NCBI GenBank assembly: GCA_963752285.1
Contig: CAVVXN010000005.1
Coordinates: 320,001 to 384,000, forward strand
Direction: 5' to 3'
Length of the DNA stretch: 64,000 nt
Origin: an uncultured Planctomycetota bacterium
GTDB taxonomy: Bacteria; Planctomycetota; PLA2; JAEUHO01
Position numbers and translations under genes: made by a program. The stretch's first letter is position 1. Each line of letters starts with the position of its first letter. Below the pieces are notes generated by a model. The model was not told the DNA's origin. It ran no database searches and was given only the letters and a program-made list of their open reading frames with translations. Below, in pieces: positions 27,386 to 27,954 of the stretch.

Positions 27386-27390
27386 CGCGA

Positions 27391-27495
27391 TCAGAACGCA
27401 CCGCTAGTAGGAAGCAGAGACGGGGCACGCGCCCGGGCAAGTCGAGCGCGAATGGACTCCACCAGAAAGTCGAGGATCGACCGCCACTGTGCCCG
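27391..27495 (-). pseudogene. C-terminal remnant of a second related IS66 transposase
   Basis: RAQWRSILDFLVESIRARLARARAPSLLP vs RAQGRSILEFLVATVQARLVGGKRPSLLP (18/29 identical) at the end of 28275..28940. Confidence 0.85.
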
Positions 27496-27498
27496 AGT

Positions 27499-27954
27499 AA
27501 GCGCCCAGGGGGTTCCGGGGCGCGCCTCGGCCCGCGACTGGGTTCGATCACGCGAGCGGAAGTCAAGTCGCACTTAGAGTCGCGGTTCCCGAAGCGCATG
27601 GGTGAATCCGTCGCCGACTACGAGCAGAGGATCGGCAATCACATGCGTTCCATTGACTGGTCCAAGCCCGTGGAACGGGTAGAACTTCCAGCCGGGGAGC
27701 GCATTGACATTTGGGTTCGCGATGGCGGCGTCCCGGGTGCCTATGGGACAACTCCTGGTACGAAGAGTGGACTGTGGATGGACACGGCTGGTAGACACGT
27801 TGAGAGCTTCGAGCTTCGAGAGCCAACGGTCGTCCTACGCACCACGGCAGCAGACTTTCCCGCGGGGCTCTATCCGGGAGTTGGTGGCCCCGGCGGCGCG
27901 ACTCAGTATGTTCTCCCAGAGAACTTCCTGCAGGGCGCTCGGAGGATTCCATGA
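27499..27954 (+). CDS. Ntox46-like (Tse6-type NAD(P)+ glycohydrolase) toxin tip
   Basis: HMRSIDWSKPVERVELPAG...GAYGTTPGT...VLRTTAA...GGATQY; frame open from the internal IR, first ATG at 27598. Confidence 0.75.
   Translation, partial: KRPGGSGARLGPRLGSITRAEVKSHLESRFPKRMGESVADYEQRIGNHMRSIDWSKPVERVELPAGERIDIWVRDGGVPGAYGTTPGTKSGLWMDTAGRHVESFELREPTVVLRTTAADFPAGLYPGVGGPGGATQYVLPENFLQGARRIP

Follow-up and report, generated by a model that had tools for sequence, protein, structure and literature searches.

The 64,000-nucleotide stretch of Planctomycetota DNA analyzed here (hereafter, the window) contains, between two lipoprotein genes, a composite insertion of the IS66 family that carries two putative toxin/immunity cassettes. 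The composite is 3,094 bp long (26705–29798), is flanked on either side by the 8-bp target duplication GTCTCGCT (26697–26704 and 29799–29806), and consists of the two cassettes, one transposase tail and one decayed transposase. Three terminal-type inverted repeats (IRs) were found in it. Two of them, at 26705 and 27497, are of the right-end type, have the same orientation and start with GTAAGCGCCCAGGGGGT; the third, of the left-end type (GTAACCGCCCAGGGGGT), ends at 29798. The outer right inverted repeat (IRR_A, GTAAGCGCCCAGGGGGTGGAGAG, 26705–26727, plus strand), the internal one (IRR_B, GTAAGCGCCCAGGGGGT, 27497–27513, plus strand), the left inverted repeat (IRL, GTAACCGCCCAGGGGGTGGAGAT, 29776–29798, minus strand) and the duplication are as described in an earlier note on this DNA, both by reading of the sequence and in a side-by-side layout of the elements. 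The segment 27497–29798 is referred to below as element B, and what lies to its left, up to IRR_A, as the remainder of element A. The right repeat of A shares a longer match with the left repeat (GGGGGTGGAGA) than the right repeat of B does. The structure is not that of a compound transposon: instead of two complete copies of an insertion sequence (IS), there is one transposase gene and a 34-codon remnant, and the internal and outer left-hand repeats are both of the right-end type in the same orientation.

The toxin frame of cassette 1 (26707–27063, plus strand) is open for 118 codons from the IR tip, which is read as K-R-P-G-G, and has no start codon. As assembled, it is interrupted by a frameshift near 27050–27060, and the C-terminal 34 codons of toxin 1 follow in a shifted frame (27063–27167, plus strand). 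Their stop overlaps, as ATGA at 27164, the start of a putative immunity gene of 73 amino acids (27164–27385, plus strand), which belongs to no Pfam family. Cassette 2 has the same arrangement, with an Ntox46/TNT-like toxin frame of 151 codons open from the IR tip (27499–27954, plus strand) and, directly downstream, a putative immunity gene of 104 amino acids (27951–28265, plus strand), the start of which overlaps the toxin stop as ATGA at 27951. On the minus strand follows transposase B (28275–29745), an IS66-family gene that is a pseudogene as assembled.

The main piece of this gene (28275–28940) matches DDE_Tnp_IS66 (PF03050; E-value, 4.8e-21). The NCBIfam model NF033517 gives 151.5 bits for the window fragment, and 293 and 279 bits for the intact transposases of loci L002 and L006, respectively, at a cut-off of 180. 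In comparison to L002, a run of single-base indels extends from about 29522 to 29078, and an in-frame TAG is found at 28970. Within its own genome the composite finds only itself by blastn, and tblastn otherwise detects only distant IS66 copies with about 29% identity. Since the transposase is decayed, toxin 1 is frameshifted and the genome holds no other copy, the element in the window looks dead.

IS66-family elements are recognized by an 8-bp target duplication and by terminal inverted repeats beginning with GTAAGCG, and canonical members have three genes, tnpA and tnpB being located upstream of the transposase gene. The duplication and the repeats (at 26705, 27497 and 29798) are present in the window. 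Between the left repeat tip (29798) and the start of the transposase frame (29745) there are about 50 bp, and the window element is thus of the single-gene type; in L002, the transposase frame opens 4 bp after the repeat begins, and the intact relatives leave no space for the accessory genes. The single-transposase IS66 subgroup is, as we take it, the ISBst12-like one.

The spacer between the cassettes, 111 bp from the immunity-gene stop (27385) to the internal IR (27497), encodes on its minus strand RAQWRSILDFLVESIRARLARARAPSLLPTSGAF followed by a stop (27391–27495; the 34 residues are encoded by 27394–27495). According to the earlier note, this is the C-terminus of another IS66 transposase, cut exactly by the internal IR, and both statements held when 27391–27495 was aligned to IS66 transposases. 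A tblastn search of the 4.64-Mb genome matched the tail to the C-terminus of the main transposase (18/29 identical residues; E-value, 4e-6), the next match having an E-value of 0.25. Among 80 IS66 loci of other genomes, 23 matches in 19 loci were obtained, and the closest relative, with 24/33 identical residues (73%; E-value, 1.6e-9), is the intact transposase of L002. A custom profile made of the C-termini of 75 relatives, with the window excluded, was searched against 57,820 six-frame open reading frames (ORFs) of the genome and recovered the tail frame with an E-value of 1.7e-5 (26.5 bits). All seven matches below 1e-4 are IS66 transposases, the next E-value is 4.2, and only IS66 genes score better than the tail. 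The earlier note had named the lack of IS66 homology in a profile search as a ground for refutation, and the tail withstands this test. Pfam's own models do not see the tail; the sole Pfam match is a chance one to BssS (E-value, 0.023).

At the DNA level, five alignments to four of the five relatives compared (75–84% identity) begin without exception at 27495 or 27496 and stay clear of the IR; the homology ends at 27495/6, next to the IR start at 27497. An extension of the tail past the IR by BLASTP (7/25 identities) was rejected, as neither the profile nor the DNA alignments support it. The tail corresponds to about residues 466–499 of a 500-residue relative. The tails of A and B have no mutual blastn match at an E-value of 1e-5, and A is thus of a different lineage from B, the two tails being too diverged for such a match. 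These sequence comparisons show the tail to be a remnant of a second, diverged element of the same layout and the same IS66 clade.

The same arrangement would result if the internal junction were an assembly chimera, made by joining two separate elements at the 17-bp repeat common to both. The assembly has five contigs and a completeness of 89%, and no public run contains the whole stretch, at most 0.14 of its words being held by any; contigs of these runs cover parts, no record spans the stretch, and gaps in coverage are not evidence. Exact 151-nt records of soil run X3 are located at 27317–27467 and 27472–27622, of which the latter crosses the junction with 25 letters on the left, where 31 letters on a side are required for a read to count as a bridge. 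As X3 may be the source sample, these records are not independent evidence. A chimera is further opposed by the compact layout, in which the tail frame with its stop lies 5 bp from the immunity stop, as in element B, and by the matching duplication at the outer ends, and a 17-bp repeat would be too short to mislead an assembly with contigs of up to 2.3 Mb. An artificial junction therefore appears extremely improbable. A 508-nt contig of run X1 matches 27497–27935 with three differences; the match stops precisely at the tip of the IR, with 69 letters left unmatched. By the usual minus-strand convention, these letters lie outside the repeat, which would place cassette 2 in a different setting.

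The relatives of the main transposase were sought in one genome per species; 553 IS66 relatives were found, of which the best 80 loci were kept. Ten of these constitute a close clade, with 63–91% identity over the C-terminal 221 residues and at least 60% identity to the transposase of L006. They are hosted by Planctomycetota MAGs (metagenome-assembled genomes), one Phycisphaerales MAG and one MAG labelled Gemmatimonadaceae. The window's genome is of the same phylum as the Planctomycetota MAG holding L006 and of the same genus as the MAG holding L007. Clade members (match E-value of 1e-120 or better) were detected in 8/401 sampled Planctomycetota genomes, and are concentrated in the window's own family (2/16 genomes) and its sister family (2/6).

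A clade member is about 2.2 kb in size and has a single transposase gene. The order in intact members is left repeat, one transposase of 490–500 residues, cassette and right repeat; the intact L002 comprises 2,212 bp and has the duplication GTCGAGTC (in transposase orientation). In 10 of the 12 close-clade gene ends, the IRR is found 627–880 bp past the transposase stop; no IRR was found at the remaining two, one of which is at a contig end. Among 69 more distant gene ends, the IRR lies within 50 bp in 36 and at least 120 bp away in 12, and none was found in 21. The elements thus form a family with a shared layout and varied cargo, as the earlier note had proposed.

In this clade, the cassette is located between the transposase stop and the right repeat, and is composed of a toxin tip and then an immunity gene. 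The toxin frames of 10/21 relatives pass Pfam cut-offs. The domains are TNT (5e-22), Endonuclea_NS_2 (2.7e-24) and WHH/Colicin-DNase (6e-17), and, further, Tox-REase-2, YwqJ-deaminase, EndoU, HNH, NTP_transf_2 (twice) and DUF6883. Two of the 11 immunity ORFs scanned in relatives exceed the cut-offs (SUKH-3, 3.7e-25; Imm26, 5e-12).

Toxin 2 of the window matches Pfam TNT below the cut-off (E-value, 0.012). It has a homologue of 88% identity (P0001), another of 46% (P0003) with 26.5 bits for Ntox46 at a cut-off of 25, and a third, of 31%, in the cassette of L006, beside a Tsi6-like gene. The immunity ORF of cassette 2 matches Pfam Tsi6, also below the cut-off (E-value, 0.049), and its homologues are located behind toxin homologues in L006 (Tsi6 E-value, 5e-4) and in genome G225. 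Toxin 1 belongs to no Pfam family and has just two homologues among 1.84 billion representatives, P0004 (78%) and P0005 (54%). Both are continuous across 27050–27060, where the frame of the window changes, and toxin 1 is therefore broken as assembled. Apart from a single gap, a 151-nt record of run X3 is identical to 26950–27099, the stretch with the frameshift; an assembly error or a difference between strains could account for the break. A distant homologue of the cassette 1 immunity gene (35%; E-value, 7e-6) occupies the immunity position of an IS66 cassette, L193, in a genome of the same genus. We infer that the small downstream genes confer immunity. The toxin/immunity label of the earlier note is thus well supported for the relatives and for cassette 2, and indirectly for cassette 1.

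In the relatives, elements were observed head-to-tail, with exactly 8 bp between the right repeat of one and the left repeat of the next. In L003 the array is built of a transposase fragment, a mini-element and an internally deleted element, three units in all, and TACCACTG recurs at each of its three junctions. In L006, CTGCGCGC is found at two junctions. At least four units are present in L191, a locus of the window's own genus, where AAGGGATG occurs twice (E2). Arrays with three or more IR-cassette units therefore exist, in L003 and L191, and the stepwise growth suggested in the earlier note is supported by all three loci. An IRR, or a sequence matching its consensus at 9/12 positions or more, is located exactly 8 bp beyond the IRL in 9/12 elements, and 9/12 elements have identical 8-mers on both sides. 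The window is among these: TTGTGCGCCCAG follows the right duplication with a 9/12 match, at the start of a right-IR-like flank sequence (TTGTGCGCCCAGG..., 29807–29822, plus strand) exactly 8 bp past the IRL. In the window's genome, 0.38% of positions reach 9/12 or more. At the "solo" L002, the position 8 bp beyond the left repeat matches at 8/12.

The simplest reading of these sequences would be that new insertions are guided by the transposase to the 8 bp flanking a right repeat on its outer side. Such targeting would by itself keep the toxin of the newcomer in the frame of its predecessor. A TGA lies in the left repeat, six codons ahead of the following cassette, and closes the displaced frame. 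The left flank of the window composite (26680–26696) ends in ...CTCCTTAC right before the duplication and resembles the end of a left repeat at 8/16 positions, a likeness that is unproven and not distinguishable from chance; judged by it, the target may once have been a repeat–8 bp–repeat junction.

The clade also contains deletions that begin at an IR tip. The IRL is fused to transposase residue 448 in L003Y, 399 in L190 (with duplication) and 446 in L171. Mini-elements of 0.9–1.3 kb (L003, 4662–5537; L190, 538–1815; L171, 927–1029) begin with a left repeat that is fused to the last 50–100 codons of the transposase, and are completed by a toxin/immunity cassette with its right repeat. Perfect 8-bp duplications flank two of them (L003Y and L190), and the mini-elements resemble non-autonomous carriers of cargo that are mobilized in trans.

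A repeat tip abutting the interior of a transposase gene, as at 27497, may have two sources, insertion into the gene or a transposase-made deletion starting from the tip, and traces of both were observed in the relatives. By either route, the stack in the window is the product of two arrivals with different cargo, and the tail is a scar. In the earlier note, B was said to have inserted into the transposase of A, and the hybrid to have moved later as a whole, the argument being that only the outer ends have the duplication. This order is just one option, as a tandem pair of B, 8 bp and A followed by a deletion gives exactly the same structure. The outer duplication is also no proof of a composite move, because tandem stacks repeat the same 8 bp at every junction (L003, L006, L191 E2).

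We consider it probable, if only just, that tandem insertion was followed by a deletion at the repeat tip. Element B (27497–29798) would most likely have inserted beside an IRR-like site, and element A would then have inserted in tandem beside the IRR of B. A transposase-made deletion from the tip of this IRR would have removed the 8-bp spacer, the left repeat of A and about 465 codons of its transposase, and would have left cassette 1, the 34-codon tail and the IRR of A. This order is favoured because tandem insertion is the normal behavior of the clade, because it needs no additional event to account for the identical outer 8-mers, the usual tandem insertion copying the same 8 bp, and because the corresponding site in the transposase gene is not repeat-like (5/12).

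In the nested route, B would have inserted in the same orientation into codon ~466 of the transposase of A, and the segment from the right repeat of A to the left repeat of B would later have moved as a composite, making the GTCTCGCT duplication and leaving the rest of A at the donor site. The junction exactly at an IR tip and the identical outer 8-mers agree with this, as does the left repeat of the composite lying 8 bp from an IRR-like flank, which is expected for any insertion of the clade. The longer match GGGGGTGGAGA between the right repeat of A and the left repeat points in the same direction, and IRs adjoin truncated transposase genes of other copies in L177 and L194, which are possible nested insertions. 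The route requires an insertion away from an IRR, whereas 9/12 elements examined sit beside one, and such an insertion would be untargeted, as the site in transposase B homologous to the break in A is only 5/12 IRR-like. The identical outer 8-mers also arise by the usual tandem insertion. In addition, a second composite uniting these two cassettes was not found: among the 401 sampled genomes of the phylum, cassette 1 is present in one (the window's own) and cassette 2 in three (the window's own, G225 and the L006 genome). We therefore regard the nested route as rather unlikely.

Tandem insertion with deletion also has observations that weigh against it, besides the possible nested insertions just mentioned. 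Neither a tandem A–8 bp–B intermediate nor a solo copy of A, for which the earlier note had suggested a search, was found, and the nearest relative of the tail is 73% identical (L002). The junction of an IRR tip with a transposase tail is unique among the loci examined, the other IR-tip deletions involving the left repeat. Intermediates of the nested route were not found either, and a metagenome scan covering 8/64 parts of the collection returned only two short close relatives, L081 and L082. In a search for the empty site, the flanking genes were not found by DNA in G396, a genome of the same genus. The best protein match of the downstream lipoprotein is 49% identical, which is too distant for a comparison of intergenic DNA.

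The right repeat of the clade is itself read as a coding sequence. In all 13 cassettes first examined, the frame from the third base of the right repeat is open for 109–157 codons and is followed by a small gene, often with an ATGA overlap. Of 18 further repeats in other loci, 16 lead into at least 100 open codons. After removal of two duplicates, 27/29 distinct repeats lead into at least 100 open codons in the same frame, a count that includes related cassettes and is thus not fully independent, although many kinds of domain are represented. For comparison, 37% of all codon positions in the same loci have 100 open codons ahead. The tip is read as K-R-P/S-G-G, T-R-S or N-R-S in every cassette and has no start codon; its consensus, divided into codons, is GT AAG CGY YCA GGG (K-R-P/S-G).

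Distant relatives without cargo have the same IRR tip, and 5–25 open codons follow it in 10/12 of the longer-gap cases. Thus, the repeat came first, and the toxin frames were fitted to it. The relation could also be the reverse, with the repeat-like sequence being a native boundary motif of planctomycete toxin genes that IS66 used as a surrogate right end to pick up tips. A toxin gene of G225 has, in fact, an IR-like sequence at a domain boundary and no transposase nearby. As this tip of the right repeat is already present, at most 50 bp past the transposase stop, in distant cargo-less IS66 relatives of many phyla (36/69), the repeat predates the cargo, and the fusion junction of L003 described below has the same 8-mer as the element junctions behind it. 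This reversed origin of the repeat seems highly unlikely.

Two long frames were found to run into a cassette. In L003, the outermost repeat continues an upstream frame of 1,184 codons across the 8-bp duplication; the fused product has 1,318 residues, its C-terminus is the nucleotidyltransferase domain of the element, and most of it is annotated by NCBI as one protein of 1,266 residues. In G225 (L202, G225:C44, 2819–7635), a 1,500-codon frame ends in a homologue of toxin 2 (54%), followed by a homologue of the immunity gene. A degenerate in-frame IS66 right repeat is located at 6846, at the domain boundary, and is the sole match with at most two mismatches in 16 kb; no transposase lies within these 16 kb. 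It is possible that the G225 frame is a domesticated fusion product.

These data admit the reading that the purpose of the in-frame IRR is to attach, through translational fusion, a new toxin tip and the matching immunity gene to a host gene, for which we see the chances as close to even. Somewhat more tentatively, the IS66 clade may be seen as a transposon system that swaps the toxic tips of large secreted proteins. The right repeat would serve as a translated linker, the landing at 8 bp would keep the frame, and each arrival would fuse its own toxin domain to the host gene and add its immunity gene. Earlier tips would remain as silent orphans closed by the TGA in the left repeat of the newcomer, and stacks would be a record of swaps, with transposase tails as their scars.

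Several observations speak against fusion being general. Of the seven outermost IRRs that were examined first, a single one continues a long frame, the other six having 10–72 open codons upstream, and in the 18 further IRRs this number is at most 59. The host protein of the L003 fusion (central domain) finds only itself in the length range searched, and the host proteins of L003 and G225 are not significantly similar (E-value, 0.04). In the window, neither toxin frame and neither immunity ORF passes a Pfam cut-off, and the frameshifts are possibly in part assembly errors, given the single gap by which the X3 record differs from 26950–27099. No large N-terminal delivery protein is joined to a toxin there: the upstream gene (24569–26614) stops 90 bp before repeat A, in another frame, and the frame upstream of repeat A, open for 799 codons, is an off-frame of this lipoprotein gene.

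Since most insertions are not fused to a long frame, the cassettes could instead be self-contained toxin–antidote (addiction) modules that stabilize the element, expressed from an internal start, with the open frame through the repeat being a by-product of tight packing. Gene callers start the cassette 2 homologues P0001 and P0002 at an internal Met, and toxin–antitoxin passengers are described for Tn3-family transposons (10.1101/848275). The domains of the clade are those of secreted polymorphic toxins, and the immunity proteins are SUKH-3, Imm26 and Tsi6-like, not members of classical type II pairs. Moreover, the frame is constant relative to the IR tip in 27/29 repeats, without a start codon at the tip, and two fusions, to frames of 1,184 and 1,500 codons, were found. 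Addiction modules are therefore judged unlikely.

With the IS66 family, the window clade shares DDE_Tnp_IS66 and zf-IS66, NF033517, the 8-bp duplication and repeats beginning with GTAAGCG/GTAACCG. It differs in the toxin/immunity cassette of 627–880 bp between the transposase stop and the right repeat, in the toxin frame read through the repeat tip, and in its N-terminus, which matches DUF6444; the Pfam IS66 C-terminal element was not detected. Non-transposition genes inside terminal repeats are shared with transporter IS and with Tn3-family transposons that have toxin–antitoxin passengers (10.1101/848275). The passenger of the clade is, in contrast to these, a start-less C-terminal toxin domain in a fixed repeat frame with an immunity gene, not a self-contained operon.

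The orphan toxin-tip arrays of contact-dependent inhibition (CDI), Rhs and MafB systems are also similar, as in them a large toxin gene is followed by C-terminal toxin domains in tandem, every one paired with an immunity gene. The shared families are TNT, EndoU, HNH/WHH, deaminase and Ntox46 for the toxins, and SUKH and Imm26 for immunity. The features of such arrays in polymorphic toxin loci were reportedly described by Zhang et al. in 2012. Orphan arrays are attributed to homologous recombination at a conserved pre-toxin sequence, whereas every unit found here has IS66 repeats, 8-bp duplications and transposase genes or their remnants at its borders. The passages searched of the review by Zhang et al. 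(PMC3482391) use the word "transposase" once, in an unrelated context, and do not contain "transposon", "mobile element" or "insertion sequence". IS66 and other transposases have been noted near some WXG toxins, and orphan cassettes are accounted for by standard recombination.

Two further systems show the habit of adding units side by side. IS30 targets its own inverted repeats and makes tandem (IS)2 junctions, and thus shares with the clade the insertion beside the end of a resident copy and head-to-tail copies a few bp apart. The transposase family of the clade is different, its spacer is the 8-bp duplication, and the stacked units are different elements with different cargo. In integron arrays, promoter-less cassettes are added singly nearest the expression signal, and older ones are pushed away but kept. 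The likeness to integrons is an analogy in the stepwise addition of cassettes and the retention of older ones; the clade has no integrase or attC, each cassette has its own DDE transposase, and expression would be by translational fusion. No published report of toxin tips borne by IS66, of a repeat read into a start-less tip or of such stacks was found in the main texts of the full-text literature searched, in which subscription journals are thinly covered. The finding joins two known kinds, an IS66 element with passenger genes and a polymorphic-toxin cassette array.

Arrays of orphan toxin tips with immunity genes characterize bacterial competition systems, and homologous recombination is the usual explanation of how they grow. 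In the clade, each unit of such arrays has transposon ends at its borders, and the toxin frame is read through the end. This would be a second, transposition-based way to diversify toxin arsenals and gather immunity genes, in Planctomycetota, a phylum in which toxin delivery is poorly known. The clade would also be an unusual example of a terminal inverted repeat under a double constraint, as a binding site for the transposase and as a coding linker, and of an insertion sequence that aims at the flank of its own kind. The window's own copy, decayed and unfused, is a bystander.

The window contains other mobile elements. An intact IS110-family transposase gene (22568–23617, plus strand; DEDD_Tnp_IS110, 8.9e-18; Transposase_20, 6.5e-18) is located 3 kb upstream of the composite; the region is thus a landing zone in which several mobile elements have settled. 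A canonical IS66 transposase of another lineage, ~29% identical to the cargo clade, is encoded at 6742–8370 (plus strand, 543 codons) and has LZ_Tnp_IS66, zf-IS66, DDE_Tnp_IS66 (5.6e-81) and DDE_Tnp_IS66_C domains; besides it, the genome has at least four further distant IS66 copies. Outside the window, the same 8-mer, AACGCCTG, is found outside the right repeats of L001 (146), L196 (5921) and L197 (7702), on three contigs from two MAGs of one co-assembly, labelled Gemmatimonadaceae and Planctomycetales, respectively; the contig with the former label may be mis-binned. In addition, a short unrelated repeat ending in ...GAGAGCCGTCCCCATTGGCAC cuts IS66 transposase genes twice in the same MAG (L003, ~3480–3573, and L009/L171).

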